Positions 7,027 to 24,031 of a stretch of 64,000 bases of DNA are shown here, one piece after another (within the stretch, counting starts at the first letter, position 1; every line of letters begins with the position of its first letter). This DNA comes from Pseudomonadota bacterium. Its GTDB lineage: Bacteria; Pseudomonadota; Gammaproteobacteria; Pseudomonadales; Balneatricaceae. The notes beneath the pieces are model-generated. The model saw nothing but the letters and a program-made list of their open reading frames with translations. It had not been told where the DNA came from and made no database searches. Location: assembly GCA_034189745.1 (NCBI GenBank), contig JAXHUI010000003.1:15048-79047 (forward strand), in the 5' to 3' direction. Both the position numbers and the translations under genes were made by a program.

Positions 7027-8518
7027 TGAGCACTCGCCTCACCCGCTCGGCCAGATCGGTTGCCAGCAACCCCCGCTCCCCCTGCTCCTGGGCACACAGG
7101 TCGGCGGCTCGGGCATGGGCATAGACACCGACGCGGGCCGCATCGATCGGGCTCAGTCGCTGTGCCCGCAGGGCGGCGATGACGCCGGAGAGCAGATCCC
7201 CCATGCCACCACAGGCCATCCCCGGATTGCCGGCACTGCACAGATGCAAGCCGTCGCCATCGAAACTCAGGCTGCCGGCTCCCTTGAGCACCACGGTACC
7301 GCCCAGTTGCCGTTGCAGCTCACGCACCGCCCGAAAACGGTCCCGCTCTATCTGCGCGACCTGCTGGCCCAGCAGGCGGGCCGCTTCTCCCGGGTGCGGG
7401 GTGAGAATCCAGTCATGCCGCCCGGCCTGCAGATGTCGCCGCTGTGACAACAGGTTGAGCGCATCCGCATCCAGCAGCAGCGGTTTGCCACTGGCGAGCG
7501 CCAGCTGCAGCAGCTGCTCGCCCCACGCCCCTTGCCCCAGGCCCGGGCCGACCAGTAACAGATCGGGCCGCGCCAGCAAAGGCTGTAACGCCTGACCGGA
7601 ATCGATCCCGGTGGCCATCACTTCGGGGGTTCGGCTCAGTGCCGCTGGCAGATGTTCAGGCCGGGTCGCCAGCGATACCAGCCCCGCTCCGCTGCGAGCG
7701 GCCGCCTGCGCGGCTATCAGCGCCGCCCCCCCCATACCGTGATCACCACCGATCACCAGCAGATGACCGAACGCTCCCTTGTGCGCGGAGCGCCGGCGCG
7801 GCGGCAGCAGCTTGACCAGGTCGTCCCGGTCGGTGCGGAAGGCGCTGGGGGATATCTCCTCGTACACCTCATCCGGCAGCAGCAGAGCGTCAAACGTCAA
7901 TTCCCCGCAATGATCCACCCCCGCGTGGGTCAGCAACCCCTGTTTGAGGGCGATGAAGGTCACCGTCACGTCCGCCTCGATCGCCACCCCCAACACGGCA
8001 CCGGTATCGCTGCAGAGGCCGGAGGGAATGTCCACGGCCAGTACCGGCCGATGGCTGCGATTGAACTGCCCGATCAGCTCGGCGGTTTCACCCCCGACCT
8101 CACCCTCGATGCCGGTGCCCAGCAGGGCATCCACCAGCACATCGCCGCACAACTCCGTGCCGGGGCGCCAGCGCTGGGGCTGCACCCCCACCGCCTGGGC
8201 CCAGCGCCAGGCGGCCAGCGCCTCGCCCCGCAGCCGCTCGGCGTAGTCGTCCGCCAGCACCAGTAACTGCACCCGCATCCCCCGCTGCCGGGCCAGTCCG
8301 GCCACGACCAGGCCATCGCCACCGTTGTTGCCGCCACCGCAAGCGATGGTCAGGCAGCGCGCCCGCGGCCAGCGCCGGAGCAACTCGGCAAAGGCGGCAT
8401 GACCCGCTCGCTGCATCAGGCGAAACCCGGGGATATCGAACCGCTCGATGGCGATCCGATCCAGGGCGCGGCTCTGGGCTGCTGTGTATAATGCGCTGGG
8501 CAGGCTCGATCTGCTCAT
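7013..8518 (-). CDS. nnr: Bifunctional NAD(P)HX epimerase/dehydratase (YjeF)
   Basis: GGGNNGGDG, DALLGTG, AVDIPSG, HKGAFG, LTPHPGEAARLL, GGMGDLLSG. Confidence 0.95.
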   Translation of the reverse strand: MSRSSLPSALYTAAQSRALDRIAIERFDIPGFRLMQRAGHAAFAELLRRWPRARCLTIACGGGNNGGDGLVVAGLARQRGMRVQLLVLADDYAERLRGEALAAWRWAQAVGVQPQRWRPGTELCGDVLVDALLGTGIEGEVGGETAELIGQFNRSHRPVLAVDIPSGLCSDTGAVLGVAIEADVTVTFIALKQGLLTHAGVDHCGELTFDALLLPDEVYEEISPSAFRTDRDDLVKLLPPRRRSAHKGAFGHLLVIGGDHGMGGAALIAAQAAARSGAGLVSLATRPEHLPAALSRTPEVMATGIDSGQALQPLLARPDLLLVGPGLGQGAWGEQLLQLALASGKPLLLDADALNLLSQRRHLQAGRHDWILTPHPGEAARLLGQQVAQIERDRFRAVRELQRQLGGTVVLKGAGSLSFDGDGLHLCSAGNPGMACGGMGDLLSGVIAALRAQRLSPIDAARVGVYAHARAADLCAQEQGERGLLATDLAERVRRVLNGLD

Positions 8519-8547
8519 GATTGACAAACTCCTATTCCTGTCGGTCC

Positions 8548-8553
8548 ATTATA
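8548..8553 (-). promoter_or_regulatory. Candidate -10 hexamer for the nnr-tsaE-amiB-mutL operon
   Basis: Perfect TATAAT on the minus strand about 30 nt upstream of the nnr ATG, followed by an AGGAG RBS; -35 match is poor. Confidence 0.35.
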
Positions 8554-8592
8554 AAGAGTGGATGGACCGAGTGCGATGGCAACCGTTTCCCC

Positions 8593-9720
8593 ATGTCTGA
8601 CTACCCACCCGAACAGCTGCAGCAGATCGCTCAAGCGCTGCAGCGCAAGGCCCGCCAACTGGGCTTTCACGATTGCGCCATCACCCGGCCCGACGCCAGC
8701 GCCGAACGGGAACCCTACCTACGCTGGCTGGCGGCGGGGTATCACGCCGAGATGGGATACCTGACCCGGAATCTGGAGAAACGGTTCGATCCCACGCGGC
8801 TACTGCCGGGCACCCGCCGCATCATTGTGCTGCGGATGAATTATCTGCCGCCAGCGCCGCTCACCGCGGTGCTGCGCGATCCGGATCGGGCCTACATCGC
8901 CCGTTACGCGCTGGGACGCGACTACCACAAACTGATGCGCCAGCGGCTGAAACAGCTCGGCCGCTGGCTCAACGATCAGGTGGAGGGGGTGGAGGTGCAG
9001 TTTCGCCCCTTCGTGGACAGCGCGCCGATTCTGGAGCGGGCGCTGGCACGCAACGCCGGGCTGGGCTGGATCGGCAAACATACCCTGCTGCTCGATCGCC
9101 GGGCCGGTTCATGGTTTTTGCTAGGTGAGCTGTTCATCGACCTCCCCCTCCCGGTGGAGGGTGCGGCGGCGCAGCCGCACTGCGGCCGCTGCCGTGCCTG
9201 TCTGGATGTGTGCCCGACCAACGCCTTTCCCGAGCCCTATCGGCTCGACGCCCGCCGCTGCATCTCCTATCTGACCATCGAGCACAGGGGCAGCATCCCG
9301 CACGAGCTGCGCCCCCTGATGGGCAATCGCATTTTCGGCTGTGACGACTGTCAGCTGATCTGCCCCTGGAACCGCTTCGCCCGACGCTCCAGCGAGGCCG
9401 ATTTCCAGCCCCGCCATGGACTTGATACGGCCGCGCTGCTGGAGCTGTTTCTCTGGGACGAGGCCACTTTTCTGGCGCGCACGGAGGGGTCGGCGATCCG
9501 CCGGGCCGGCTATGAAAGCTGGCAGCGCAATCTGGCGGTGGCGCTGGGCAACGGTAGCGGCGGCGCGGCGGTGGAGGCGGCGCTGCACCAGCGCCGCGCC
9601 ACCGCCGCAGAGCTGCTGCGCGAGCATATCGACTGGGCCCTGCAGCAACTGCGTGAGCGCACCAAGGCGCGCCCCCTGCCGCTGCTCGATCACCCCGGCG
9701 CGGGCCGCCTGCCGGAGTAG
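8593..9720 (+). CDS. queG: Epoxyqueuosine reductase QueG
   Basis: ARYALGRDYHKLMR, FVDSAPILER, GWIGKH, CGRCRACLDVCP, CISYLTIE, GCDDCQLICPWN; divergent from nnr. Confidence 0.96.
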   Translation: MSDYPPEQLQQIAQALQRKARQLGFHDCAITRPDASAEREPYLRWLAAGYHAEMGYLTRNLEKRFDPTRLLPGTRRIIVLRMNYLPPAPLTAVLRDPDRAYIARYALGRDYHKLMRQRLKQLGRWLNDQVEGVEVQFRPFVDSAPILERALARNAGLGWIGKHTLLLDRRAGSWFLLGELFIDLPLPVEGAAAQPHCGRCRACLDVCPTNAFPEPYRLDARRCISYLTIEHRGSIPHELRPLMGNRIFGCDDCQLICPWNRFARRSSEADFQPRHGLDTAALLELFLWDEATFLARTEGSAIRRAGYESWQRNLAVALGNGSGGAAVEAALHQRRATAAELLREHIDWALQQLRERTKARPLPLLDHPGAGRLPE

Positions 9721-9739
9721 GCCGCGTGTGGGCGCCGCC

Positions 9740-10282
9740 TCACAGGCGGAAAAAATGGCGCCGGTAGTAGCGCAGCTCTTCGATCGACTCGCGGATATCA
9801 TCCAGCGCCAGATGGGTGTTGTTCTTCTTGAAGCCATCCATGATGCCGGGCTTCCAGCGCCGCGCCAGCTCCTTGATGGTGCTCACATCGAGGTTGCGAT
9901 AATGAAAAAACGCCTCCAGTTCCGGCATATAGCGGCAGAGAAATCGGCGATCCTGGCCGATGCTGTTACCGCACATGGGGGAGGCTCCCGGTTCGCTGTG
10001 CTGGCGCAGAAACGCCAGCATCCGCTGCTGCGCCTCCGCTTCGGAGATGGTGCTGGCGCGGACCCGGTCGGTCAGCCCGGACTGGCCGTGCTGGCGGGTG
10101 CACCACGCATCCATGTGTGACAACACCGCATCCGGCTGATGTACGGCGAGCACCGGCCCCTCCGCCACCAGGTTCAGATCGCTATCGGTCACGATGGCCG
10201 CCATCTCGATGATGCGGTCGGTGTCAGGATTCAGGCCGGTCATCTCCAGATCGACCCAAACCAGATTGTCCTTCAGTGCCAT
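9740..10282 (-). CDS. orn: Oligoribonuclease
   Basis: [43 protein letters not shown]. Confidence 0.97.
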
Positions 10283-10378
10283 GCACCCTTTCTCCCCTGG
10301 CCAGACTGTCAATTTTTCCCGCTTTGGAATACCTTAGCACGTCAACCAACAAAGCTGTGAGCGAGTGATAACCGCCGG

Positions 10379-11404
10379 ATGGGAAAACGCAAGGTCAGTC
10401 GTCGTCAGGCGTGGCGCATCGACAGGATTCAGTCCGAACGCGCAGCCCGTGCCACGCGCCAGGATGCCCTGGTCGAGGCGCAACTGGAGGGGGGCGAGTT
10501 GGGCCCCGAACAGGAGGGGCTGATCGTCGCCCATTTCGGCCGCCAGGTCGAGCTGGAGCCCCTCGAAAGTGGCCGCGGCGGGGCGTGTGTGCGCTGCCAC
10601 CTGCGCACCCACCTGGGTCAACTGGTCACCGGCGATCGCGTCATCTGGCGGCGCACGCCGGATGGTGGTGTTGTGGTGGCCGCCCTCGACCGCCGCAGTG
10701 AGCTGCTGCGGCCCAATAACTACGGTGAGCTGAAACCGGTGGCCGCCAATATCGACCTCATCATCCTCGTGATCGCGGTCGAGCCCCACCCCCACGCCAA
10801 CCTGATCGACCGTTATCTGGTCGCCGCCGCGGCCAGCGCGATCGAGCCGGTACTGCTGCTGAACAAGGCCGACCTGCTCGACGCTGACAACCGCCGACGA
10901 CTCGACCCGCTGCTGGAGCTGTACCACTCCCTGGGCTATCGCACCCTGCAGGCATCCACCGCCAGTCAGCACGGTCTGGACCAGCTGCGGGCGCTCCTGG
11001 CCGGCCATACCAGTGCCTTTGTGGGCCAGTCCGGGGTGGGAAAATCCTCCCTGATCAACAGCCTGCTGCCGGCTGCCGCTCTGCGCGTGGGCGTCCTCTC
11101 CGAGCAGTCGCGCACGGGTCGCCACACCACGACGACGGCGCGCTTGTTCCACCTTCCGGGGGGCGGTGATCTGATCGACTCCCCCGGCATCCGCGAGTTT
11201 GGCCTCTGGCACATGAGCCAAGAGCAGGTGCTGAGCGGCTTTCGTGAGTTGGCGCAACTGCAGGGGCAGTGCCGCTTCCGCGACTGCCGCCATGAACAGG
11301 AGCCGGGCTGTGCATTTCGTGCGGCGGTGGTCGACGGCCGCGTCAGTGAGCAGCGCTTCAACAGCTACCGGCAAATTCTCGATTCGATGCAGAACAAACG
11401 CTAA
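10379..11404 (+). CDS. rsgA: 30S biogenesis GTPase RsgA
   Basis: NKAD, GQSGVGKSS, GRHTTT, DSPGIREF, CRFRDCRHEQEPGC zinc site. Confidence 0.96.
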   Translation: MGKRKVSRRQAWRIDRIQSERAARATRQDALVEAQLEGGELGPEQEGLIVAHFGRQVELEPLESGRGGACVRCHLRTHLGQLVTGDRVIWRRTPDGGVVVAALDRRSELLRPNNYGELKPVAANIDLIILVIAVEPHPHANLIDRYLVAAAASAIEPVLLLNKADLLDADNRRRLDPLLELYHSLGYRTLQASTASQHGLDQLRALLAGHTSAFVGQSGVGKSSLINSLLPAAALRVGVLSEQSRTGRHTTTTARLFHLPGGGDLIDSPGIREFGLWHMSQEQVLSGFRELAQLQGQCRFRDCRHEQEPGCAFRAAVVDGRVSEQRFNSYRQILDSMQNKR

Positions 11405-11427
11405 CCGAAGGAGGACGCGGCACAGCC

Positions 11428-13053
11428 ATGAGCAGCACCCCATGCCTTTACGGCTCCGAAGCCTGGGCCGATTACCTGGCCGAGCGCACCCTGCCGATCC
11501 GAGTGAGTGTACTGACCCGGTTCAAACGGCTGCTGCAAAACGACAACACAACCCTGCGACAGCTCTCCCAACTGATCCGCTCCGACCCGGTACTCACCCT
11601 GCAGGTCACCCGCATCGCGCAGCGACGCCACGCGGCCAAGGGCTCGAGCGTTACCAGCATCGATCATGCCGTCAATTCCGTTGGTCTGGATCAACTCTCC
11701 GAGCTGGCGCAGGGGCTGCAGGGCCTCAGGGTCAGCCCGCGCAGCATGCAGCAAAAGATGTACTTTCGGGCCATCGCCGACAGCCAGCACGCCGCCAATC
11801 AGGCGGCCGAGCTGTGCCGGCAGCGCGGACTGCCGTTTGTTGAAGAGGTTCGCCTGGCGGCGCTGCTGTACGGCTTCGGCCACTGGCTGCTGTGGCTGCA
11901 CGCCCCCCTGCACAAGCATGAGTACCAGAAAAAAGTGCTGCTGGAAAAAGTGGATGTCGCCCTGGCCGAACAGGATATTTTTGGCTGCACGGTCCAGGCA
12001 CTCAGTGCCGAGCTGGCACAGCGCTGGGATCTACCGGCACTGACGCTGGCGGCACTGGACCACGACACCTCACCCACGCGCACCGAGCTGCGCTTGCTGC
12101 ATCGCCGGGCCTTGAATGATCCCAGACTGGGACAGGGGGAGCTGCGCAGGATAAACCAGCTGACACAGGAGCGGTTCTTCCCGGTCAAACTGGGCAACTG
12201 GCTGGCCCTGACCACCACCCATGGCTGGCGCAGCAAAAAAACCCTTCGCCTTTACGACATCGCCGCCGATTTTTTGAGCCGCCCCCGCGACCGGGTGGTT
12301 GCACAACTGCATCAGACCTGTGCCGACGCCTCGCGTCAGTATCATGTGCCCGGCACTCTGAGCCCTGCCGCCCAGCTGCTTTTCCTGCCCTCCGATGAGA
12401 TCCTGTCGGGGCTGATCGAAAGCCGGGAGCTGCAGCGGCTGCAACAGCGCTATCCGCTGCCGGAAAAACCCCTGCCCGAAACCCCCGAGCCCGCTCGCCC
12501 CTCCACCCCGGACCCGGCGCCGGTCCAATCGCCTCCGGTCAACGCCCATGCCCGGAAGGAGCTCTACACACAGATTCTGCAGCGGCTGCAACACGGCTAC
12601 CCGCTCCACACCAAACCGGCCCACATACTGCAGGCGTTGCTGCAGGGGCTCCACCAAGGGCTGGGACTCGCTCGCGTCGCCCTGCTGCTGCTCGACCCGA
12701 AAAAACATCGCTTGCACTGCGCTCGCACCCTGGGAATCAGCGCCACGGCGGCGATCAACCAGCTCACCATCGACAGCGAGATTCCCAGCCTGTTCAAGCG
12801 GTTGACCGAAAAGCCGGCTGGCATCTGGCTCGATGACGACAAACGCAACACGCTGCGGGCGATGCTACCGGAGGCCTTCATGGAAGCGGCACACAGCGGC
12901 GACTACCTGCTGATGTCCGTTTTCAACAAGGGAGAACCGCTGGCGATCATCTACGCCGATGACGGCGACGAGGTCCAGCGGCTATCGCCGTTCCAATATG
13001 AGCAGTTCCGTCAACTCTGCGCCGCGGCGACGCTGGCATTGAAACGGCTCTAA
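11428..13053 (+). CDS. HDOD-domain signalling protein with a GAF-like C-terminal region
   Basis: N-terminal HDOD text (LSQLIRSDPVLTLQV, SIDHAVNSVG, LAQRWDLP), Pro-rich linker, C-terminal domain (LALIYADD-type strand). Confidence 0.75.
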   Translation: MSSTPCLYGSEAWADYLAERTLPIRVSVLTRFKRLLQNDNTTLRQLSQLIRSDPVLTLQVTRIAQRRHAAKGSSVTSIDHAVNSVGLDQLSELAQGLQGLRVSPRSMQQKMYFRAIADSQHAANQAAELCRQRGLPFVEEVRLAALLYGFGHWLLWLHAPLHKHEYQKKVLLEKVDVALAEQDIFGCTVQALSAELAQRWDLPALTLAALDHDTSPTRTELRLLHRRALNDPRLGQGELRRINQLTQERFFPVKLGNWLALTTTHGWRSKKTLRLYDIAADFLSRPRDRVVAQLHQTCADASRQYHVPGTLSPAAQLLFLPSDEILSGLIESRELQRLQQRYPLPEKPLPETPEPARPSTPDPAPVQSPPVNAHARKELYTQILQRLQHGYPLHTKPAHILQALLQGLHQGLGLARVALLLLDPKKHRLHCARTLGISATAAINQLTIDSEIPSLFKRLTEKPAGIWLDDDKRNTLRAMLPEAFMEAAHSGDYLLMSVFNKGEPLAIIYADDGDEVQRLSPFQYEQFRQLCAAATLALKRL

Positions 13054-13186
13054 CCCGCCATCGGGCAGGGGGTCGCGTTCAAAAGAGGGTACGCCACCGA
13101 AACGGCCCCCGCCGGTGTTGTGAACCGCAACGGTTTGGCGCCTGAGCGCCCGCCAAAGCTCCGGGCGGCCGTGGAGCATTTCAAAG

Positions 13187-13813
13187 TCAAAGCGCCCCCG
13201 GCGCCGCTGGCTTGAGCCCACGCCAGCGCTCGACCACCGGCAGGTGTACCCCGAACTGATCCAGAACGCGCCCCACGATCTGGGTCACAACCGCGTCCAG
13301 ATCCTGCAAGCCAAGGTAGAAGGCGGGCGCCGGAGGAAAGATGATCCCCCCGGCCTCGGTCACGGCCACCATGTTGCGCAACTGGATGAGATTCAGCGGC
13401 GCCTCCCGCGTCACCAGCACCAGCCGCCTGCGCTCCTTGAGCGTGACATCCGCGGCCCGCGTCACCAGATTGTCGCTGCTGCCATGGGCGATCCCCGAGA
13501 GGGTTTTCATGGAGCAGGGGATCACCACCATCCCCTCGGTGCGAAACGACCCACTGGCGATGGCCGCGCCGATATCCTTGTGCCCATACACGCAGGTGGC
13601 CAGTTGCTGGAACCGATCACGCCCCACCTCCAGCTCCTGTTGCGCCGTGACCACCGCCGCCGGGGAGAGCACCAGATGGGTCTCCCACTCCGGCACCCCC
13701 TGCATCAGCTGCAGCAAACGCAACCCCAGCAGCGCGCCGGAGGCCCCGGTGACCGCCACCACCAGCCGCCGGCGAGGGGGCTGCTCAGATCCGGCGGCGA
13801 TCTCACTGCTCAC
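13187..13813 (-). CDS. ubiX: Flavin prenyltransferase UbiX (makes prFMN for UbiD)
   Basis: VAVTGASG, IASGSF, PCSMKTL, RAADVTLKERR, REAPL, PPAPAFY; GTG start overlaps the upstream stop. Confidence 0.94.
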   Translation of the reverse strand: MSSEIAAGSEQPPRRRLVVAVTGASGALLGLRLLQLMQGVPEWETHLVLSPAAVVTAQQELEVGRDRFQQLATCVYGHKDIGAAIASGSFRTEGMVVIPCSMKTLSGIAHGSSDNLVTRAADVTLKERRRLVLVTREAPLNLIQLRNMVAVTEAGGIIFPPAPAFYLGLQDLDAVVTQIVGRVLDQFGVHLPVVERWRGLKPAAPGAL

Positions 13814-15159
13814 GCCAGCGCCTCTTCGAGTCGCGAGCGCAACGCGACAAAGCCCGCGTCACTGTACTGCTGCAGCGCCACCGGTTGCAGGGCGGGACTG
13901 GCGCGGACCACACCGATCCCCTGCTGCGCCCAGTGGGTGATGAGGCGCCGGCCAAGCTCCAGCGCGGAATCGACCGCTCCCGGCTCGAACAGGATGAACG
14001 CCTCGGCCAGCAGAGAGCGCCACGCGGTGCCCTGCTCGATCACAATCTGGCAGCCGCTTCCCTGCGCGATCTGGTGGGTGCCGCGCACGAACGCCCGTGC
14101 GCTGTCGCCTTCGATCGGCATGGCGAAACAGAGCCGCAACATCCGCCCCCTGGCGCCATCGAGAAAGGCTCGATACCGCGGCGCCGGCCGCCCCGACATC
14201 AGGGCGGTGCGCTCCGCCTCGGGCGCGAGCGGCTGCATGGTGATGCCGCCGAGCTGGCCGGCAAGCCCCTCGAGCATGGTCCACACCGCGTCGACATTTT
14301 TCTCCAGTCCATAAAGCGCGCCGTATATATTCCAGCCACCGGGGTCGCCCTCCCCGGTAAGCCGCCGCTCACTGCGCTCATCCACAGCCACGAGGGTATT
14401 GGGCACCACCATGTTGATCCGCAGGGAGCGCACCGCCTCCATCGCCGCCACGAATCGATCGTCGTCATCGACGCGCCAGACGAACGGTCGGTAAGCGGGC
14501 GGTTGCGGTGATACCCAAAAGCCCATTTTGGTGGTCACCGCATAGGCGCTCTGGGTGAAGATGCCATCGGCGTAGGGGCCAAAGCCGTATTTGAACAGCT
14601 GCCAGCTGTTCTCACCGGGCATCGCCCCCATGCCGGTGCGCACCAGGCTGCCGTCGGTCTGCATCACCTCCATTCCGCACTGCATCATCATGCGATCGCC
14701 ATAGGCGGTGTAGCCGAAGCTGCGCTCCCAGATGCTGCCGGTGATGGAGGCGTCGGCGTCGGCACCGGCATCGAGCCACAACGCCAAGCCGTTTTCCTTC
14801 AGGTGGGCCGCCAGTTGCGCGTAGCTGACGCCGGGCTCCACCAGCGCGTAGCCGGAGGCGGCGTCCACCTCGACGATCCGGTTCAGACGCGACAGCTCCA
14901 GCAATACCGGAGCGGCGCCGCCGGCCGGAGGCACCACGAGGGCGTTACCCGCCTGGTTCCAGGCGATCCAAAGTGAAACGCCGGACGCTTTGGCCGCCGG
15001 CAAAACCAACGCCAGCTCCTCCACGGAGGCCGGCCGCACCCGCTGCTCGGGATGGCGCCCCTCGACGCCGACGCCCTGGTGCAGGATGGAGCGATCCGTT
15101 ATCGCTTCCAGCGCCAGCCCCGCCGCTTCCAGCCGCTTGGCAAAGTTTTCTACTGCCAT
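13810..15159 (-). CDS. Degenerate VAO/PCMH-family flavoprotein paralogue (probable pseudoenzyme subunit)
   Basis: Keeps VEPGVSY, GYTAYGD, RTGMGAMPG..WQLFKYGFGPYADGIFTQS; lacks STGKN-YGG, the covalent-FAD residue, GEYR Tyr and the C-terminal DPxGILxPGK motif. Confidence 0.8.
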   Translation of the reverse strand: MAVENFAKRLEAAGLALEAITDRSILHQGVGVEGRHPEQRVRPASVEELALVLPAAKASGVSLWIAWNQAGNALVVPPAGGAAPVLLELSRLNRIVEVDAASGYALVEPGVSYAQLAAHLKENGLALWLDAGADADASITGSIWERSFGYTAYGDRMMMQCGMEVMQTDGSLVRTGMGAMPGENSWQLFKYGFGPYADGIFTQSAYAVTTKMGFWVSPQPPAYRPFVWRVDDDDRFVAAMEAVRSLRINMVVPNTLVAVDERSERRLTGEGDPGGWNIYGALYGLEKNVDAVWTMLEGLAGQLGGITMQPLAPEAERTALMSGRPAPRYRAFLDGARGRMLRLCFAMPIEGDSARAFVRGTHQIAQGSGCQIVIEQGTAWRSLLAEAFILFEPGAVDSALELGRRLITHWAQQGIGVVRASPALQPVALQQYSDAGFVALRSRLEEALA

Positions 15160-15401
15160 TATTTTCTCCCCCGAGATTGTTGTGGTTCGAACAGTTGACG
15201 CAACCGATCCAGATCAACGCCGGTTAGCTGCGCCCAGCGGGGCCGCTGGCTCGGATCGATGACCGCGGGGGGCTCACTGTCACGCCAGGTAAACGCACAA
15301 TGACCACAGTGCCAAACCTCCCACACCTTTTTACCCTGCTCATGACCCGAATGGACCCGGGTGGCGCTGCGCGTTTCACAGCGCGGACAGATCTCACTCA
15401 T
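15159..15401 (-). CDS. Non-oxidative hydroxyarylate decarboxylase subunit D (VdcD/BsdD-like)
   Basis: CPRC...VWEVWHCGHCAFTWRDSEP pattern; directly downstream of the UbiD gene. Confidence 0.85.
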   Translation of the reverse strand: MSEICPRCETRSATRVHSGHEQGKKVWEVWHCGHCAFTWRDSEPPAVIDPSQRPRWAQLTGVDLDRLRQLFEPQQSRGRK

Positions 15402-16884
15402 CTTCTCCTCCTTGCACCTGCATCGATTTCAGCCGCTGCAGCAGGGCGTCGATCTCTGCGCCCGCCGGTCGGCTCACCAGGTGTGGATCGGCACCGAGAT
15501 TATCCGGGGCCATGAAACTGGTTGCATCGATGATCAGCCGATGCCCTTTTCCGGGCACCTCCGCGGCCGGATCGATCGGCACCATCGCCATATTGGGCAA
15601 CACCATGATGTCATTCGCCCGGGTGCGGGTGGACAACGCCCAGATCACCTCCTCCAGGTTGAAGGGGTCGACAAACTCATCCACCAGAATGATGTTTTTC
15701 AGATACATGACGCCGTGGGGGGTACCCAACGCCCGCATCGCCACCGACTTGGCAAAACCCGCCACCCGGTTGCGCACCGAGATGATGGCGGTCAAACCAT
15801 GCTGGTACATGGCGTTGACCGCCTGTACCTCGGGAAAATCCTTTTTCAGGGCCGAGTAGATCGGCACCGAGGTGGGAAGCCCGATCAGGGTGTCGTGCTC
15901 CGTCCATCCTCGACCGATGTAGATATTTTCAAAGATCGGATCGTGGCGGTGGCTCACCGAGGTGACCTTGAACAGGGGTACCTTGCGCACCCCACTGTAA
16001 CTGCCGGGGAACTCGCCAAAGGGCCCTTCGGTCTCGCGCTCGTTGAGCACCATCTCGGTCTCGATCACCATCTCGCTGTCGGCCAAAATCTCTGTCCCAT
16101 TGAGCGCCTGGGTCAGGCGCAGACGCGAACCAAACACCTGTGAGGCATAGGCGAATTCCGATTCGTCGTAGCCCACCGGGGTGCCGCCAAACAGGGTCAT
16201 CGCCGGATGGTTGCCGATCATGATCGAGGCCCGCAACGGCTTGCCGTGGGCTTCGGCGGCCATCATCTGGCGACCGGCGTCATGGGAGGGGATGGAGAGA
16301 ATGGTCAGCGTGTCCGGCCCCATCACTTGGATGCGGTAGATGCCGACATTTTGTTTGTCGAAATTATCCGGCTCCAACGGGTCGCGGGTCACGACGCACG
16401 CCTTGGCGATGTAGAACCCCCCATCCATCTCGTTGATGCGATACAGGGGCAGGAGCTCGTACAGATTGATCTCCCGATCGATATGGTTCGCGCAGATGGG
16501 CGCCTGCTCACGCGGTATCCGCTCGAGCAGGGGTTTATCCGACCCCCATCGGCTCACCATCTCAAAAAACATCTCCCGCACGCTGGCGCTTTTGGGCAGA
16601 CCCAGCAACAGTGCCAGGTTGGCGAAGCTGCCCAGCACATTGGTGGCGATGCGGTGGCCGGGGTAACCCTGCACGTTGTCGAGCAACACAGCCGGCCCGC
16701 TGGCGACATCGTTCCCGGCCGCAACCGAAACGTTACGGATGTCGGGCTCGGGTCTCACCGGGTCATGCCACACCACCATCTGGTTACGCCGCGCCAGCAG
16801 GTCGAGAAAATCCCGCAGGCACCCGAGACCCGCGGCGGTAGCCTTTGCCGAGGCTGAGAGCCCCGTGTTCTTTTCACTGTCCAT
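15394..16884 (-). CDS. UbiD-family prFMN-dependent decarboxylase (VdcC/BsdC-like subunit C)
   Basis: DGGFY, KQNVGIYRIQ, EGPFGEF, FPEVQAVNAMYQHG, VDPFNLEEVIWAL, IIDAT. Confidence 0.9.
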   Translation of the reverse strand: MDSEKNTGLSASAKATAAGLGCLRDFLDLLARRNQMVVWHDPVRPEPDIRNVSVAAGNDVASGPAVLLDNVQGYPGHRIATNVLGSFANLALLLGLPKSASVREMFFEMVSRWGSDKPLLERIPREQAPICANHIDREINLYELLPLYRINEMDGGFYIAKACVVTRDPLEPDNFDKQNVGIYRIQVMGPDTLTILSIPSHDAGRQMMAAEAHGKPLRASIMIGNHPAMTLFGGTPVGYDESEFAYASQVFGSRLRLTQALNGTEILADSEMVIETEMVLNERETEGPFGEFPGSYSGVRKVPLFKVTSVSHRHDPIFENIYIGRGWTEHDTLIGLPTSVPIYSALKKDFPEVQAVNAMYQHGLTAIISVRNRVAGFAKSVAMRALGTPHGVMYLKNIILVDEFVDPFNLEEVIWALSTRTRANDIMVLPNMAMVPIDPAAEVPGKGHRLIIDATSFMAPDNLGADPHLVSRPAGAEIDALLQRLKSMQVQGGEDE

Positions 16885-18313
16885 GGGCACCCCCCTGGAT
16901 CGTGATCCACTTCCATTCGGTGCAGTGGTCGATGTCGGTCACCGTGCCCTCGCGGCCCATGCCGGAATCACCGACGCCACCAAAGGGCACGTGGGGCTCG
17001 TCGTACAGCGTGGGGGCGTTTACATGCACCATCCCCGCCCGGAGCCGACGCGAAGCCTGCATCGCCCAGTCGAGGTTGCGGGTATACACCGCCGCCGAAA
17101 GACCATAAGAGGTATCGTTGGCCAACTGCAGGGCCTGTTCGAGATCATCTACCGGATACACCGCCGTCACCGGGCCGAAGGTCTCCTCCCGGTAGCAGGT
17201 CATGCTCTCGCTCACCCCCGTGAGGATGGTGGGGTGGCAGCGGTTGCCGCTCCAATCCCCCCCGGTCAGAACCTGTGCGCCTTTGGCCCGGGCGTCGGCG
17301 ATATGCTCCCGTATCCGCTGCCGTTGACGTTCGGAGATAATCGGACCGATCACGGTGGCGGGGTCACTCAGCGGGCCCAGATTCAAAGACTCGGCCGCGG
17401 CGGTAAAGCGCTCGAGGAAAGCAGCATACAGGGGACGCGCTACCAGAATGCGACTGGCGGCCATGCAGGCCTGCCCCTGATAGAGAAACATGCTTTTCAC
17501 GGCATCCGCCACCGCCAGCTCCAGATCCGCATCCTCCAGGATCAACAGGGGGTTTTTCCCGCCGAGTTCCAACAACGAACGCTTGAAGTGGCGACCGCAC
17601 AGCTCGGAGAGGTGGCGCCCCACCCGGGTGGAGCCGGTGAAGTTCACGGCCCGAACCGCCGGCGCCTCGACCAGACGGTCACCGATCTCATGGCCGATTC
17701 CCGTCAGCAGATTGAAGGCACCGGCCGGAAAGCCGGCGTGGTGAAACAGCTCCGCCACCCTGACGGCCAGCACCGGCGCCTCCTCCGAGGCCAGCATGAC
17801 CACCGTATTGCCGGTCGCCAGCGGACCGGTACACTGCTTCATCGCCTTGATCAGAGGGACATTGAAGGGGGTGATACAGGCAACGACCCCCAACGGCTCA
17901 CGGATGCTGAGCCCCACCCGCCCCGGCGCGTCCGAGGGGAGGGTCTGGCCACAAACGCGCCGGGGGATACCCGCGGCGGCGCGCAGGTGGCCGATGGCGT
18001 ACTGGATCTCGAACCGAGCCTTCATCACCGGGGAACCGATCTCCTCGATCAGCACCTCTTCAAAGGCCTCGGCCCGCTCTTCCAGTAGCTGCGCGGCCCG
18101 CATCAGCCACGCCTCCCGTTCCCGGGCGAGGGTCTGGCGATAGGTTTGGAAGGCGGCATCGGCCGCCGCCACCGCCGCATCGACATCGGCAGGGCCGGCC
18201 TTGGCCACCACCGCAAACGCCTGATCATCTTCCGGTCGAAGGTCGACGAACGTGCTTTTATTGGCAGCGCTCACCCATTGACCGTCGATCCACAATTGGG
18301 TCTGTAGCATCAT
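16874..18313 (-). CDS. Aromatic aldehyde dehydrogenase (PchA/Vdh-like)
   Basis: ITPFNVP, FTGSTRVG, LELGGKNP, QGQACMAASR (catalytic Cys), EETFGP. Confidence 0.9.
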   Translation of the reverse strand: MMLQTQLWIDGQWVSAANKSTFVDLRPEDDQAFAVVAKAGPADVDAAVAAADAAFQTYRQTLAREREAWLMRAAQLLEERAEAFEEVLIEEIGSPVMKARFEIQYAIGHLRAAAGIPRRVCGQTLPSDAPGRVGLSIREPLGVVACITPFNVPLIKAMKQCTGPLATGNTVVMLASEEAPVLAVRVAELFHHAGFPAGAFNLLTGIGHEIGDRLVEAPAVRAVNFTGSTRVGRHLSELCGRHFKRSLLELGGKNPLLILEDADLELAVADAVKSMFLYQGQACMAASRILVARPLYAAFLERFTAAAESLNLGPLSDPATVIGPIISERQRQRIREHIADARAKGAQVLTGGDWSGNRCHPTILTGVSESMTCYREETFGPVTAVYPVDDLEQALQLANDTSYGLSAAVYTRNLDWAMQASRRLRAGMVHVNAPTLYDEPHVPFGGVGDSGMGREGTVTDIDHCTEWKWITIQGGAHGQ

Positions 18314-18663
18314 TTTTCTTTGTCCTCTATCTTGTTTTTTTGCGCGGCGGAAGTGGAGAGGTAGCGCGCCAGCGCATCCAACTCGCGGGCACTGATCTCA
18401 GAGGGTCTAAAGGGGGGCATCATATTGAGCCCGTGGCGGACAATCCGGCGCACATAATCCGGCTCCAGCGGCTCTCGATCCAGCAACGATGGCTGTTGCG
18501 GCCAGCGATCAGCGAGTCGCGCCGTACCCGGATACTCCATGCCGCGATCATGGCAGACGGTACAATATTGTTCGAACAGCGCCCGGCCATCGGGCTCGGC
18601 GAGCAGTGTGGATGAAAGAGTGCCCAAACCAAGCCCCACGGCCAGCGATAGCAATGTTTTCAT
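18310..18663 (-). CDS. Monoheme cytochrome c subunit (PchC-like)
   Basis: Sec-type signal, CTVCH, PGT, VRHGLNMMPPF (axial Met). Confidence 0.88.
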   Translation of the reverse strand: MKTLLSLAVGLGLGTLSSTLLAEPDGRALFEQYCTVCHDRGMEYPGTARLADRWPQQPSLLDREPLEPDYVRRIVRHGLNMMPPFRPSEISARELDALARYLSTSAAQKNKIEDKEK

Positions 18664-20234
18664 CAGACTCCCTCCTTCCGCAGCCGTTGGGGCCAGATCC
18701 CCATCTTGCCAGGCCCCAGTATGCCGCTTGGATCGAGGGCATCCTTCAACCGCTCCCGCTGTCGCTGTTGGGCGGCGTCATTCCAGTTATAGGTGCCCGC
18801 TATTTTGTCCATGAAATCGAGGTGGGTGCGATATTCACCATACCCTTCGGCCGCGGCGGCATCGATCAGCTCGCCAAACAGCTGGTTCGCCCGACGCTTT
18901 TCCGCCTCATCCTGCAGATCATAAACAAGGGCAAAAATGTGGTGCATGTCACGCCAACCAACCAGCATCTCGCCGATGTAATCGAACCCGGCCCGGTTGA
19001 CACGATCCCGGATCAGACTGTACTGGCGCATCGCATCCTCGCCGGTGACGGGGGAGATGGGAGAGAAGTCCATGTGTCCGCCGTTGGGGATCCAGTTCAT
19101 CTGGTTGTACTCGGTCATATTGGGGATGCCGCGCATGAGCTGCCTGCGGTACTCCCAGCCGATATCCCCCTTGCGATCGTCGTCGAAGTAGATTTTCGCC
19201 CCCGGGATCGACGTGAGCGAGTCACGGATGATCTCGAGGTTGTTTTCCATGATCGGCGCCGGGCCATAGACAGCCCCATAAAAATTCCACACCCCGATCT
19301 GCAGATCGGCACGCAGTTTCTTTCTCGCCGACTCCGGCAAGGGCCCCTTGCCGGTGTGGTAGTGACGGCGCTGCTTTTGCACGGCCGCCTCCCAGAGCAT
19401 CTCCACGGTGGTGGCGGCGTTGGGAATGATGTTGTTGAGCTTGAGCGGACGAACCCGCTCGGTGACCTCGTACAGATCCTCCTCGCGCTCGTAAGTGATC
19501 ATGAAGGGGGTGTAGCCCGGCGGCTCCGGCATCAGCCAGATGCCGATCCGGGTCACCACGCCAAAATTGGACTGGGTAAAAAGCCCGTCGGCCCATGGCC
19601 CCAACCCGTATTTGTAGAGGTGTGTGGTGCGGCTGCCGGGCAGGGCACCCATGGCGGTGTGGGCGATCGTGCCGTCAGCGAGCACCACCTCCATGCCGCA
19701 CTGCATCAGCAGGTGATCACCATACGGGGTGTAACCGGCTCCATGGTCCACCAGATTGCCCAACATGCCGCCCCAGCCCGGCGCGGCGGGGTCGATCCAC
19801 AGTTTGGAGCCGATGCTTTGCAGATGCCGATACATATCCATGTAGCTCACGCCGGGCTCCACCACGGCGTAGGCGTGTTTTTCATTTACCTCGAGGATCC
19901 GATTCATCCGTTTGAGGTCCAGCACCACCGCACCGGCCAGCCGGGGGGCAGGGCCGCCATAGGCGAAATTTTTACCCGTGGAGATCGGCCACAGCGGGAT
20001 GCCGTATCGTCCTGCGGCGCGAACAACGGCCTGCACCTGGGCCACGTTCGCCGGGGCGACGGCGGCGGAGGGCTGATGCAGCGCCTTGGGCAGGGTGGCA
20101 TATTCGTCATTGTAGGCGGGCAATTCCCATTCGAGATCGAGGTAGACGTAATCCCGACCCACCGCTTTTTGCGCCTCGGCCACAAACCCACGGAAAGCCT
20201 CACCGTTCACCTGCGGCGGAAGTATTCTCTCCAT
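18663..20234 (-). CDS. 4-alkylphenol/vanillyl alcohol dehydrogenase flavoprotein (VAO/PCMH family)
   Basis: STGKNFAYGG, VEPGVSY, GYTPYGDH, NWIPNGGHMDFSP, GEYRTH, DPSGILGPGKMGIWP. Confidence 0.9.
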   Translation of the reverse strand: MERILPPQVNGEAFRGFVAEAQKAVGRDYVYLDLEWELPAYNDEYATLPKALHQPSAAVAPANVAQVQAVVRAAGRYGIPLWPISTGKNFAYGGPAPRLAGAVVLDLKRMNRILEVNEKHAYAVVEPGVSYMDMYRHLQSIGSKLWIDPAAPGWGGMLGNLVDHGAGYTPYGDHLLMQCGMEVVLADGTIAHTAMGALPGSRTTHLYKYGLGPWADGLFTQSNFGVVTRIGIWLMPEPPGYTPFMITYEREEDLYEVTERVRPLKLNNIIPNAATTVEMLWEAAVQKQRRHYHTGKGPLPESARKKLRADLQIGVWNFYGAVYGPAPIMENNLEIIRDSLTSIPGAKIYFDDDRKGDIGWEYRRQLMRGIPNMTEYNQMNWIPNGGHMDFSPISPVTGEDAMRQYSLIRDRVNRAGFDYIGEMLVGWRDMHHIFALVYDLQDEAEKRRANQLFGELIDAAAAEGYGEYRTHLDFMDKIAGTYNWNDAAQQRQRERLKDALDPSGILGPGKMGIWPQRLRKEGV

Positions 20235-20815
20235 CAGACAGCCCTCCCCGGCAAGGCGAGCAGAGAGGCCCTGGCCGTGTCAGCCCAGCACTGCGCCTGG
20301 TGCAGCCGCGAAATCCGCTTTTGCTTGAAAAGCTCGCGGGGGTCCAGATCGAGAGCCAGCAGGTTGCCGGCAAAGTCGTACTCATCGCGCGCGGCGCCCA
20401 CGGCCCCGGCCAAAGAGCCCGCCAGGGAGGCGGGGGCGTGGATCTCATGCAGCCGCGCAGCTTTCGCGCCGTGCATGCCGCGCATGACGACTCGCCAGCG
20501 GCTGCCCAGTTGGGTGCGAAGAGCGAAAATGGCGGCGGGCGTCCCCAGAGCGACCAGGGCAGAGTAGTTGTCGACCGACAACGGCCCCTCCGCCTGGTGG
20601 GAAATCGCCGCGGCACGCTCCAGACTCAGGGGGTGGTGCTCGAGCGATACCCCCCTTGGGGAAAAGGGGAGGCGGGGATCGGGATGCTCCGAGAGCAACA
20701 ACACAGGGCGCAGATCGGTGCGCGGATCACCAACCAGCCCCGCCCAGGCCGGCAGAACCGTTGCCCCACACAGCAGGCCGGTCGTACCGGTCAAAAAGTT
20801 TCGTCGCGTCATCAT
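20234..20815 (-). CDS. Tat-signal protein of unknown function, first gene of the aromatic operon
   Basis: TRRNFLT twin-arginine motif, hydrophobic stretch, AWA cleavage site; GAGGA RBS; stop overlaps the flavoprotein start. Confidence 0.7.
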   Translation of the reverse strand: MMTRRNFLTGTTGLLCGATVLPAWAGLVGDPRTDLRPVLLLSEHPDPRLPFSPRGVSLEHHPLSLERAAAISHQAEGPLSVDNYSALVALGTPAAIFALRTQLGSRWRVVMRGMHGAKAARLHEIHAPASLAGSLAGAVGAARDEYDFAGNLLALDLDPRELFKQKRISRLHQAQCWADTARASLLALPGRAV

Positions 20816-20952
20816 TATTTTTATTCCTCTTGGACGTTAGCGCATCGAAATTAGCACCCCCTCTCAGAGTGCGCAACAAGCTGACCCTTTGAGAGTTGCC
20901 GCCCGCTCCGTTATGATCAGCCGTACCATATCTGAATGGTCGTACCCATAAT

Positions 20953-21783
20953 ATGCTGACACTACCGCTGCTGGTCGAACCCCAGAGTCTACAGGCGCAG
21001 CTGAACCACCCGGATCTGCTGATCATCGATCTTTCCAGCCGGGAGCATTACGCTCAAGGGCATCTGCCCGGTGCCGTTTTGCTCGATCCCGCCCGGCTGC
21101 TGCGCGGCGCTGGCCCCGTTCCCAATCGGATACCCACCGAGGCGCAACTTTCGCGCCTGCTTTCCGAGCTGGGCATCCGCCCTGAAACCCAGGTGGTGGC
21201 CTATGATGATCAGATGGGCCCCTGGGCCGGGCGGCTGGTGTGGACGCTCAACTGCATCGGCCACCCGCGCGCCTCGGTGTTGAACGGCCAGTTGCCCGGC
21301 TGGCAGGCCGCCGGATTCGAGCTGGAAAGGTCGGCCCATGCGCCCACTCCCACCGAACGCCAGGTCGGTTTTAGCCATCCTGAGCTGATCATGAGCGCAG
21401 AGCAGATCGTGGCGGCGCTGGAGCGGAAGCAGCTCACCGTCTGGGATGCCCGCTCGGCGGCCGAATTTTCCGGGGAGAAAGTAGTCAACGCCCTCAGAGG
21501 GGGGCATATCCCCGGGGCGCGCCATCTGGAGTGGAGCGATCTGCTGCAGCCCGGCCCGGTACCGAGACTGAAGCCGGAAGCCGAACTGAAACGGCTGCTG
21601 CAACAGGCGGGCATCGGCCTCGATCAGCCGGTGGTCACCCATTGCCAGACCCACCGGCGTTCGGGCCTCACCTGGCTGGCGGGTAGATGGCTGGGTATGC
21701 GGCAGCTATCCTGCTACGACGGTTCCTGGTTTGAGTGGGGCAATCGCCCCGAGCTGCCAATCGAGCAATCCACCAAGGAGTGA
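20953..21783 (+). CDS. rhdA: Tandem-domain rhodanese (thiosulfate sulfurtransferase, RhdA type)
   Basis: GHLPGA, GHIPGA, active-site loop HCQTHRRSG, YDGSWFEWG. Confidence 0.88.
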   Translation: MLTLPLLVEPQSLQAQLNHPDLLIIDLSSREHYAQGHLPGAVLLDPARLLRGAGPVPNRIPTEAQLSRLLSELGIRPETQVVAYDDQMGPWAGRLVWTLNCIGHPRASVLNGQLPGWQAAGFELERSAHAPTPTERQVGFSHPELIMSAEQIVAALERKQLTVWDARSAAEFSGEKVVNALRGGHIPGARHLEWSDLLQPGPVPRLKPEAELKRLLQQAGIGLDQPVVTHCQTHRRSGLTWLAGRWLGMRQLSCYDGSWFEWGNRPELPIEQSTKE

Positions 21784-22652
21784 ACCCCACCTTGAAAAAG
21801 ACCCTGTTCGTTCTGCTGCAGCATCTTCTGCCCCAACATCTGCTGTCACGCCTGGTGGGGCGCCTCGCCGAGTGCCGCACCCCCTGGATCAAGAACCGGC
21901 TCATCGACGGCTTCCGTCGCTACTACGACGTAGACATGAGCGAGGCGCTGCAGCCGGACCCGGCGGCCTACCCGCACTTCAACGCCTTTTTCACCCGCGC
22001 CTTGAAGGCGGACGCTCGCCCCCTGGACACCACCCCGGGGGCGGTGCTGTCACCGGTCGATGGCACCATCAGTCAGCGGGGAACCCTCCAGTATGGCCGC
22101 ATCTTTCAGGCCAAGGGGCGCGGCTACGCACTGACCACCCTGCTCGGTGGCGACAGCCAACGGGCCGACCCCTTCATCGACGGTGAATTCGCCACGCTCT
22201 ACCTGTCGCCGCGGGATTACCATCGGGTACACATGCCGCTGACCGGAACCCTGCGCGAAACGGTTTACATTCCGGGCGATCTCTATTCGGTCAACGCCAC
22301 CACGACCGCGGGCGTGGAAAACCTGTTTGCCCGCAACGAGCGCCTGGTGGCGATCTTCGATACGGCGTTGGGCCCCATGGCGATGGTGCTGGTGGGAGCG
22401 ATGATCGTGGCCGGCATCGAGACCGTCTGGCGCGGCCAGGTGGCACCACTACCGCGCCAGCCTCTGCTCCTGGACCGCTTTGACGCCACCCCGCCCCGGC
22501 TGGAGCAGGGTGCCGAGATGGGCCGATTCAAACTGGGATCGACTGTCATACTGCTCTTCCCCAAGGGCAGCCTGCAGTGGCTGGAGGGCCTATCGGCGGG
22601 CAGCCCGGTACGGATGGGTGAGCGGCTGGGACTGGCGCGGCGGGTCTGTTAG
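21780..22652 (+). CDS. psd: Phosphatidylserine decarboxylase proenzyme
   Basis: FNAFFTRALK, SPVDG, YLSPRDYHRVHMP, NLFARNER, GRFKLGST self-cleavage motif. Start uncertain (GTG 21780 or TTG 21792). Confidence 0.95.
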   Translation: MNPTLKKTLFVLLQHLLPQHLLSRLVGRLAECRTPWIKNRLIDGFRRYYDVDMSEALQPDPAAYPHFNAFFTRALKADARPLDTTPGAVLSPVDGTISQRGTLQYGRIFQAKGRGYALTTLLGGDSQRADPFIDGEFATLYLSPRDYHRVHMPLTGTLRETVYIPGDLYSVNATTTAGVENLFARNERLVAIFDTALGPMAMVLVGAMIVAGIETVWRGQVAPLPRQPLLLDRFDATPPRLEQGAEMGRFKLGSTVILLFPKGSLQWLEGLSAGSPVRMGERLGLARRVC

Positions 22653-24017: not shown

Positions 24018-24031
24018 GCGATGACCACGCC

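Follow-up and report, generated by a model that had tools for sequence, protein, structure and literature searches.

A shortened flavoprotein paralogue lacking catalytic signatures is maintained beside a vanillyl-alcohol dehydrogenase-like flavocytochrome c in Proteobacteria and Binatia

We report that a shortened flavoprotein paralogue of 449 amino acids (aa), encoded in the 64,000-nucleotide stretch of DNA analysed here (the window; positions 15,048 to 79,047 of contig JAXHUI010000003.1, assembly GCA_034189745.1, from a Pseudomonadota bacterium of the Balneatricaceae), belongs to a family maintained under purifying selection, and that its place is with a flavocytochrome c, the link to the adjoining hydroxyarylic acid decarboxylase being secondary. 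The protein has the fold of the vanillyl-alcohol oxidase/p-cresol methylhydroxylase (VAO/PCMH) family, and we consider it quite probable that this paralogue is being maintained, does not oxidise 4-phenols and is tied to the flavocytochrome. We further propose, putting the chances at about even, that it is a non-catalytic alpha-prime protomer, that is, a stable dimer partner of the vanillyl-alcohol dehydrogenase (VAD)-type flavoprotein encoded at 18663-20234. The genes and sites discussed below are collected in Table 1.

The 449-aa protein aligns with the 523-aa catalytic flavoprotein of the same operon at 31% identity over 454 columns (BLASTP, E 1e-63). Its matches in Pfam, NCBIfam and the PDB are to the VAO/PCMH family, and no homology was found to the known UbiD accessory families (VdcD, LpdD, PhdC/YclD). 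Pfam FAD_binding_4 (PF01565) is matched over model positions 1-139 of 139 (E 3e-20, 72.7 bits, cut-off 26.4); the FAD-oxidase_C domain (PF02913) carried by the paralogue gave no Pfam match in the 449-aa protein, and weak matches to GlcD and D-lactate dehydrogenase persist. An earlier note on this DNA had listed a series of motif substitutions and a lost C-terminal tail, and every one of them was seen in our alignments. The pyrophosphate loop STGKNFAYGG has become AWNQAGNALV, with deletion of the residue equivalent to VAO Tyr108; at this position the family consensus is P-N-x-x-G-N-G, whereas the canonical S-T-G-K-N-x-x-Y-G-G is at least 90% conserved. GGH, with the flavin-linking His, has become GRM, and across the family this site is occupied by Y, S, R, H, M or Q, none of them in a majority (Tyr 0.28), against His in 62 of the 63 canonical partners. 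GEYRTH has become GVVRAS, so that Tyr468 is replaced by Val418 while the Arg is retained; elsewhere in the family the Tyr site is S, V, T or C and the Arg site H, R, L or Q. The 449-aa protein thus lacks the complete phenolate triad Tyr108/Tyr503/Arg504 (VAO numbering), and it ends ...EEALA, before the D-P-x-G-I-L-x-P-G-K motif, so that the DPSGILGPGK tail is missing. One reading of the earlier note had to be abandoned, namely that the change from GGMLGN to ASITGS reflects erosion: Ser138 and Gly141 of the 449-aa protein correspond to Ser155 and Gly158 of the solved VAD, and the first position of the motif is Ser in 16 of the 63 canonical partners. Within the family the S-I-x-G-S motif is conserved, as is [R/K]-N-x-x-x-S at the position of the N5 loop. 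Judged from its sequence, the family protein is predicted to be incapable of 4-phenol-oxidising PCMH chemistry.

The pattern of loss and retention was quantified in an alignment of 71 family members with 63 catalytic partners. Sixty-eight sites that are at least 90% conserved in the catalytic partners fall below 50% in the family, and these cluster in the pyrophosphate loop, the N5 loop, the linking-His loop, the Tyr-Arg-Thr-His phenolate motif and the C-terminal tail. Another 40 sites are conserved in family and partners alike, mostly in residues 106-226, in keeping with the strongly conserved central block (residues 146-226) to which the earlier note had pointed. Site classes were built from the VAO residues named in the main text of a VAO simulation study (PMC5646868). 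They comprise the subunit-interface path (Arg183, Val185, Tyr187, Asp192, His193, Trp194, Met195, His197, Tyr244, Tyr249, Ser255, Arg300, Met303, Asn307, Thr310) and the re-side path, which is the cytochrome c side in PCMH (Tyr51 to His61, Gly103, Arg104, Ser106, Leu171, Gly174, Leu411, Gly420, Lys475; PMC5646868). They were mapped through the motifs YGD-H-x-M, P-Y-G-F-G-P-Y, L-F-S/T-Q-S and P-N-T plus offsets. With conservation expressed as the mean frequency of the commonest residue, the 15 interface sites score 0.83 in the family (P<5e-5), against a family background of 0.55 and 0.80 in the catalytic partners. The 15 flavin, phenolate and re-path sites score 0.38 in the family (P=0.002), below the same background, and 0.92 in the catalytic partners. 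At the level of the family, therefore, the description 'catalytically eroded' is supported.

The family, labelled FAM and made up of intact shortened paralogues, was represented by about 115 clusters in the protein search (440-500 aa, PF01565 only, in identity tiers of 47-73% and 33-42%) and by 159 further loci in genome and metagenome scans. Among its carriers are Panacagrimonas, Rugosibacter, Cycloclasticus, Porticoccaceae, Piscirickettsiaceae, uncultured Gammaproteobacteria, Binatia, sphingomonads and Paraburkholderia. The intact orthologues, more than 100 in number, span the Gamma-, Beta- and Alphaproteobacteria and the Binatia, and plasmid-borne copies include SARO_RS17200, annotated 'FAD-binding oxidoreductase', on pNL1 of Novosphingobium aromaticivorans DSM 12444. 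The 449-codon reading frame in the window (13810-15159) is open, as the earlier note had said, and no stops or frameshifts were seen among the complete orthologues of the family. That note had proposed the ratio of non-synonymous to synonymous substitutions (dN/dS, or omega) across orthologues as a check. Estimated pairwise (NG86), with the window's genes represented by an identical contig (L089) and close relatives, it lies between 0.03 and 0.20, and between 0.05 and 0.17 in most pairs with unsaturated dS; loci with a decarboxylase give 0.03-0.17 and those without one 0.09-0.20. Values for the cytochrome c and VdcD are similar to the family's, while those of the catalytic paralogue are 0.01-0.09, the family being about 2-4 times higher. 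In a neighbour-joining tree the family forms one clade whose topology mirrors that of the catalytic partners, with branches about twofold longer. A 23-sequence alignment (A1; 33-73% identity) contains 59 invariant columns, and the G+C content at third codon positions (GC3) of the 449-aa gene is 0.83, like that of the adjoining genes.

Expression data are available for one orthologue. In Novosphingobium sp. HR1a, orf1990, located between decarboxylase subunit D and cytochrome c553, was induced 4.4 by phenanthrene, against 4.4-5.9 for its neighbours (PMC8360164). It occupies the same operon position as the family gene, and was treated by the HR1a authors as an ordinary PCMH subunit of a 'p-cresol to catechol' route (PMC8360164). 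The organism of the window is itself present in wastewater, crude-oil and shale-gas metagenomes, and a metatranscriptome contig of 7.9 kb covers 12800-18727, the gene included, although DNA carry-over is possible. A decaying duplicate, a pseudogene in the making, would fit the lost catalytic motifs, the longer branches and the raised dN/dS relative to the catalytic paralogue. Low dN/dS, far below 1, and intact frames nonetheless rule it out, and the more than 100 intact orthologues, the invariant columns, the ordinary GC3 and the co-induction in HR1a likewise leave this explanation with next to no probability. The view of the earlier note that the gene is maintained and not decaying is thus well founded.

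Several side observations concern the history of the family. Contigs from Binatia and deltaproteobacteria carry intermediate second paralogues (L056 3037-4569, L074 1995-3518, L082 9923-11365, L087 3758-5236, L088 11933-13282). In some of these the T-G-K-x-x-A-H-G-G loop and the PGK tail are still present and the linking His and Tyr-Arg pair already gone; erosion has proceeded further in others, and the series could serve to order the losses. Some loci contain two complete flavoprotein-cytochrome c pairs (L136 and L073, of Immundisolibacter type, and L155 and L165). The second flavoprotein in them keeps the PGK tail but has no Tyr-Arg motif, and a cytochrome c of its own comes next, an arrangement unlike that of the family studied here. 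Other operons are mosaic (L013, L015 and L016 compared with L022; L058 compared with L059): vdcD and the family gene, at times with vdcC and the aldehyde dehydrogenase (ALDH) gene, differ at dS of 0.9-2.4, and the flavoprotein, cytochrome c and ubiX at only 0.01-0.45, a contrast that points to recombination in which the distal operon genes are exchanged together.

Which neighbour the family gene is tied to was asked of 63 distinct family genes for which 6 kb or more of sequence upstream was available. A cytochrome c gene lies near the family gene at all 63 loci and an intact canonical flavoprotein at 62, the gene being split at the remaining one; VdcC and VdcD are encoded at 57, with the family gene directly after vdcD. 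No decarboxylase was found at 6 of the 63, nor were UbiD or VdcD found in the sequence covered by about ten shorter contigs, on which flavoprotein, cytochrome c and family gene are directly adjacent. Loci L055 and L135 carry a stand-alone four-gene operon amid unrelated genes, consisting of a twin-arginine translocation (Tat) signal protein, flavoprotein, cytochrome c and family gene. In such decarboxylase-free operons, with no decarboxylase within 10 kb, the family gene evolves at an omega of 0.09-0.20. Among the loci examined there was none with the family gene and VdcCD and without the flavocytochrome. The family does not, then, co-occur obligately with a UbiD-family gene, and two flavoprotein paralogues are encoded together with a cytochrome c. 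In basal lineages the family gene follows the flavoprotein and cytochrome c genes, in that order, and vdcCD lies elsewhere, so that the place after vdcD looks like the product of an insertion of vdcCD, with or without the ALDH gene, upstream of the family gene. The description of the gene as lying inside a decarboxylase module is accurate for the window, where it sits between vdcD and ubiX, but this position is secondary, since the constant partners are the flavoprotein and the cytochrome c.

These counts bear directly on the possibility that the protein is a decarboxylase accessory for VdcCD/UbiX, for example one that binds or oxidatively matures prenylated FMN (prFMN), in a role like that of LpdD or PhdC on a different fold. 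The elements of the VAO 'FAD path' we take to be those at the ADP-pyrophosphate end of FAD. The lost elements line this path beside FAD (PMC5646868) and prFMN has no ADP moiety, UbiD maturation helpers are diverse (PMC10865409, PMC13040415), and the position directly after vdcD, with coupling to vdcD and ubiX in the window, would suit such a helper. LpdD (a prFMNH2 chaperone) and PhdC/YclD (a prFMN maturase) are, like the 449-aa gene, extra genes in UbiD/UbiX operons, but their folds (Pba3/4-like and HpaC-like, respectively) are unrelated to that of the 449-aa protein, and the family persists without UbiD. Purifying selection on the gene in operons free of UbiD/VdcD and the lack of any family locus with UbiD but without a flavocytochrome led us to downgrade the prFMN-helper idea. 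The basal gene order, with vdcCD elsewhere, also speaks against it, as does the fact that sites near the isoalloxazine are unconserved too, and we regard it as very unlikely. A related conception would be a VAO-fold scaffold minus the ADP-pyrophosphate site, which would bind an FMN-level flavin or the prFMN made by UbiX and link cofactor supply or maturation for VdcCD to the flavocytochrome c. It would explain the position after vdcD, the coupling to vdcD and ubiX and the conserved Gly/Asn-rich loop, and we hold it to be a long shot.

The family keeps a conserved monomer-monomer interface together with the interface path; R146, D155 and Q160 are invariant in alignment A1, and R174, W186 and Q187 are invariant in the family and relaxed in the catalytic partners. 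Among the 78 distinct catalytic flavoproteins that have a degenerate neighbour, 73 no longer possess the Trp and show the pairs TH, SS, GG, NN and others there instead. W-Q is retained in the solved VAD, in the basal lineages and in canonical genes that have no partner in the roughly 3 kb available downstream (L156, L167). This contrast at the Trp-Gln/Arg patch, sustained while both paralogues evolved over the same span, suggests a division of labour between the paralogues.

Structure prediction agrees with the assignment of fold. The AlphaFold2 model of the 449-aa protein (pLDDT 87, pTM 0.88) shows the two domains expected, FAD-binding and cap, with Foldseek TM scores of 0.84-0.86 to VAD and PCMH and query-normalised scores of 0.82-0.86 to VAD, PCMH, EUGO and VAO; a PDB search found no solved structure of any family member. 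The sole segment of the model with pLDDT below 50, residues 186-201, is yet the best-conserved sequence of the protein, the pattern expected of an element that is ordered by a partner or a ligand.

The reading that we favour, a dead alpha-prime protomer, would join these observations as follows. Alpha-prime would pair with the catalytic flavoprotein through the VAO-type interface, replacing a second catalytic protomer. As the substrate funnel runs along the dimer interface in EUGO, VAO and VAD, the partner would supply half of it. The surface formed by the N-terminus, the N5 loop and the His loop, on which cytochrome c docks in PCMH, appears to be lost in alpha-prime, and together with the active-site losses this would give a dimer with one active site and probably one cytochrome. 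For transport to the periplasm the complex would presumably rely on the Tat signal that the 193-aa protein carries. We infer the physical pairing, the absence of FAD, the stoichiometry, the localisation and the choice of a stable over an assembly-only pairing. For the heterodimer partner suggested by the earlier note the support is thus indirect, coming from the conserved interface and from the Trp-Gln/Arg patch lost in the catalytic partners, and of the roles that it named, chaperone and scaffold are candidates besides the stable subunit.

Some points weigh against a dedicated dimer partner. The solved VAD, PCMH, EUGO and VAO are homodimers, and as VAO-type enzymes function in that state a partner is not intrinsically required. 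The loss of Trp-Gln may trace to one or a few ancestral events, which limits its statistical weight, and the VAO residues were mapped by sequence offsets and not by superposition, with His61, Leu411 and Lys475 uncertain. Conservation of P-N-x-x-G-N-G, [R/K]-N and S-I-x-G-S means that binding of a flavin or another ligand is possibly retained. Finally, with the gene directly after vdcD at 57 of 63 loci and translationally coupled to vdcD and ubiX in the window, there may be a decarboxylase link.

The conserved motifs are one argument for a protein that is still a flavoenzyme, holding FAD or another flavin non-covalently in a remodelled site and performing its own redox reaction on a non-phenolic substrate, or an electron relay, with the same cytochrome c. 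The full-length FAD_binding_4 match, the weak matches to GlcD and D-lactate dehydrogenase, and the existence of a naturally non-covalent enzyme, nsVAO (PMC7617285), are compatible with this. The cap domain, however, has no conserved polar residues that would mark a new active site, and the flavin and substrate cavity positions are the least conserved of the protein (0.38). The PGK tail (VAO Lys545) and the pyrophosphate loop, both on the VAO 'FAD path' (PMC5646868), are lost, the N-terminus is shortened, and the region that corresponds to the cytochrome docking side has degenerated. We consider a surviving flavoenzyme doubtful.

How the catalytic flavoprotein reaches the periplasm matters for a further alternative. 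Neither flavoprotein-fold protein of the window has a signal peptide, and a twin-arginine motif was found in 0 of 106 family members. A Tat protein of the 193-aa type abuts the flavoprotein gene at 67 of 93 distinct loci (in the stand-alone operons it lies at L055 7128-7748 and L135 7255-7827), and it is missing at the 14 of the 93 where a Tat signal is part of the flavoprotein itself. That the two exclude each other suggests hitchhiker export, with the 193-aa protein as the probable Tat escort of the signal-less flavoprotein. The 193-aa protein has no Pfam or NCBIfam match; a word-based search found 13 homologues, and its AlphaFold2 model (pLDDT 72.5) matches no PDB fold (best E 0.047, TM at most 0.31).

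Since the flavoprotein must fold and be flavinylated in the cytoplasm before Tat export, whether by escort or by its own signal, the family protein could also be a transient assembly factor. It would stay in the cytoplasm, hold the new catalytic flavoprotein through the dimer interface until FAD is fixed or the Tat escort bound, and be absent from the mature enzyme. A conserved interface combined with lost active-site residues, and the lack of any twin-arginine motif in the family, would be expected of such a factor. To our knowledge, on the other hand, no Tat proofreading chaperone or flavinylation factor described so far is a paralogue of its client. VAD-type enzymes barely react with O2 (PMC7617285), so that handling of the flavin before the cytochrome is in place could need help; yet the Marinicaulis VAD acquired covalent FAD in Escherichia coli without any such factor (PMC7617285). 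A role confined to assembly seems to us unlikely, and a stable alpha-prime protomer remains the reading that we prefer.

The active paralogue itself is VAD-like and not a classical PCMH. In a phmmer search of the PDB its matches include the Marinicaulis VAD (8S7P, E 2e-197) and PCMH (1DII, E 1e-130), and its predicted covalent His places it with the His-linked VAO, EUGO and VAD and not with the Tyr-linked PCMH of Pseudomonas and Geobacter (PMC7617285). VAD barely uses O2, probably depends on a cytochrome c of its own, and p-cresol is not among its substrates (PMC7617285). The catalytic paralogue and 62 relatives combine the covalent His with an Ala-Pro N5 loop (residues 148-156 and 385-387), where VAD has Asp-Pro and VAO Asp-Leu. 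This signature is unlike those of the clades in PMC7617285, and substrate range and catalytic base may therefore differ from those of VAD.

Among known systems, the VAD of Marinicaulis flavus (8S7P; PMC7617285) is the best solved relative of the catalytic paralogue and also of the 449-aa protein (E 1e-64 over residues 36-255). VAD and the 449-aa protein share the two-domain fold and the central G-A-M-P-x-x-x-W-Q-L-F-K-Y-G-x-G-P-Y block, and the VAD dimer has its substrate funnel at the interface. Unlike the 449-aa protein, VAD is active as a homodimer, holds its FAD through a His link and has Asp150-Pro151 in the N5 loop and a Tyr/Arg phenolate site. PchF/PchC of Pseudomonas putida (1DII) is a periplasmic flavocytochrome c too; its core is a VAO-fold dimer and its flavoprotein has no signal peptide, but it is alpha2beta2, with identical catalytic protomers and Tyr384-linked FAD; we know of no dead paralogue for it. 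In Geobacter metallireducens, PCMH (PcmI/PcmJ with PcmG) is likewise encoded as two flavoprotein paralogues and one cytochrome c, and Johannes et al. in 2008 reportedly found it to be a heteromeric alpha-alpha-prime-beta2 enzyme with covalent FAD on one isoform. The parallel drawn by the earlier note thus stands as regards two paralogues, and is otherwise a loose one. PcmI (of which Tyr394 is cited in later literature) and PcmJ are both full-length, belong to the Tyr-linked PCMH clade and are 39-41% identical to BpfA, whereas the family is shortened at both termini, lacks the pyrophosphate loop, linking residue and phenolate triad, and has a His-linked VAD-type partner. The nsVAO of Novosphingobium sp. 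(PDB 9FFK) also lacks a flavin-linking residue, but is full-length, binds FAD and turns over vanillyl alcohol. An identification of the family with nsVAO was rejected, as a sphingomonad member scores E 1e-74 to nsVAO and 1e-95 to VAD and nsVAO is full-length. Our literature search found no paper joining PCMH with UbiD and UbiX and no description of a shortened, motif-less family, and the main text of the pLA1 proteome paper does not mention such a protein.

In the window, the minus strand from 20815 to 13187 holds eight tightly packed genes (Table 1). The 449-aa gene is coupled on both sides, as had been noted before: its ATG and the vdcD stop overlap in TAATG, a GGGGGAGAA Shine-Dalgarno sequence lies 7 nt 5' of the ATG, and its TGA overlaps the GTG start of ubiX (GTGA). 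The operon probably converts a 4-hydroxybenzyl-type phenol to the aldehyde, the acid and finally the decarboxylated phenol by way of the flavocytochrome, ALDH and VdcBCD in turn. Housekeeping genes flank it, with nnr, queG, orn, rsgA and the gene for an HDOD protein at one end and rhodanese, psd and GCV_T-like genes at the other, and no regulator or further aromatic-catabolic gene adjoining the operon was found in the window flanks. The genes orn-rsgA and psd are neighbours in E. coli; here the operon, the HDOD gene and the rhodanese gene sit between them (window 9740-13053 and 20953-22652). This placement and the plasmid-borne copies (pNL1, Paraburkholderia plasmids) suggest an island that was acquired horizontally and entered a conserved housekeeping neighbourhood. 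At 64% G+C the window also contains many long antisense open reading frames (ORFs) opposite real genes at 8000-26000, for example 18340-18615 (+), 13244-14314 (+) and 18489-20567 (+, 692 aa), which are by-products and not for annotation.

Table 1. Operon genes and sites within the 449-aa protein, numbered from the first nucleotide of the window
Feature	Position	Strand	Basis or remark
193-aa protein, twin-arginine signal (MMTRRNFLTG...AWA)	20234..20815	(-)	ORF; homologue named 'twin-arginine translocation signal domain-containing protein'
Catalytic flavoprotein, 523 aa, His-linked, VAD-like	18663..20234	(-)	Pfam FAD_binding_4 and FAD-oxidase_C; presumed partner of the 449-aa protein
Cytochrome c subunit, 117 aa, N-terminal signal-like hydrophobic stretch	18310..18663	(-)	Pfam Cytochrome_CBB3, Cytochrom_C
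Aldehyde dehydrogenase, 479 aa	16874..18313	(-)	Pfam Aldedh E 4e-156
VdcC-type UbiD-family hydroxyarylic acid decarboxylase, 498 aa	15394..16890	(-)	NCBIfam VdcC 670 bits (cut-off 650); Pfam UbiD_N, UbiD, UbiD_C
VdcD small subunit, 80 aa	15159..15401	(-)	NCBIfam VdcD 75 bits (cut-off 30)
449-aa VAO/PCMH-fold paralogue without catalytic and covalent-flavin signatures	13810..15159	(-)	Pfam FAD_binding_4 only
Residues 67-76 WNQAGNALVV, remodelled loop in place of the FAD pyrophosphate loop S-T-G-K-N-F-A-Y-G-G	14932..14961	(-)	Alignments
Residues 146-165 R-S-F-G-Y-T-A-Y-G-D-R-M-M-M-Q-C-G-M-E-V, conserved block	14665..14724	(-)	Matches VAO interface-path Arg183, Val185, Tyr187, Asp192, His193, Trp194, Met195, His197
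Residues 174-204 RTGMGAMPGENSWQLFKYGFGPYADGIFTQS	14548..14640	(-)	Y191, Y196, T202 = VAO interface-path Tyr244, Tyr249, Ser255
Met340 at the covalent flavin-linking His position (paralogue His387; VAO His422)	14140..14142	(-)	Alignments
Val418-Arg419 at the phenolate-binding Tyr-Arg pair (paralogue Tyr468-Arg469; VAO Tyr503-Arg504)	13903..13908	(-)	Alignments
UbiX/VdcB flavin prenyltransferase, 208 aa	13187..13813	(-)	NCBIfam UbiX subfamily 260 bits

In summary, a flavocytochrome c with a dedicated dead paralogue appears to be widespread in hydrocarbon degraders and to have been mis-annotated as carrying a second catalytic subunit, its nearest precedent being the PCMH of Geobacter. Family genes currently go under the names '4-cresol dehydrogenase flavoprotein subunit' and 'FAD-binding oxidoreductase', and pathway reconstructions of degraders of polycyclic aromatic hydrocarbons and oil (among them Cycloclasticus, Rugosibacter, Porticoccaceae, Panacagrimonas and sphingomonad plasmids including pNL1) take them for a second catalytic PCMH, as for orf1990 of HR1a (PMC8360164). 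Novosphingobium aromaticivorans DSM 12444 and Paraburkholderia aromaticivorans are among the cultured and genetically tractable carriers. Because VAO-type enzymes have their substrate funnel at the dimer interface, a non-catalytic partner could tune substrate access, which is relevant to the engineering of 4-phenol oxidoreductases. Should the heterodimer prove true, VAD-type flavocytochromes would be four-component systems (Tat escort, catalytic alpha, dead alpha-prime and cytochrome c) with one active site per dimer, and the family would show clearly, in bacteria, how complementary loss between paralogues can turn a homodimer into an obligate heterodimer.

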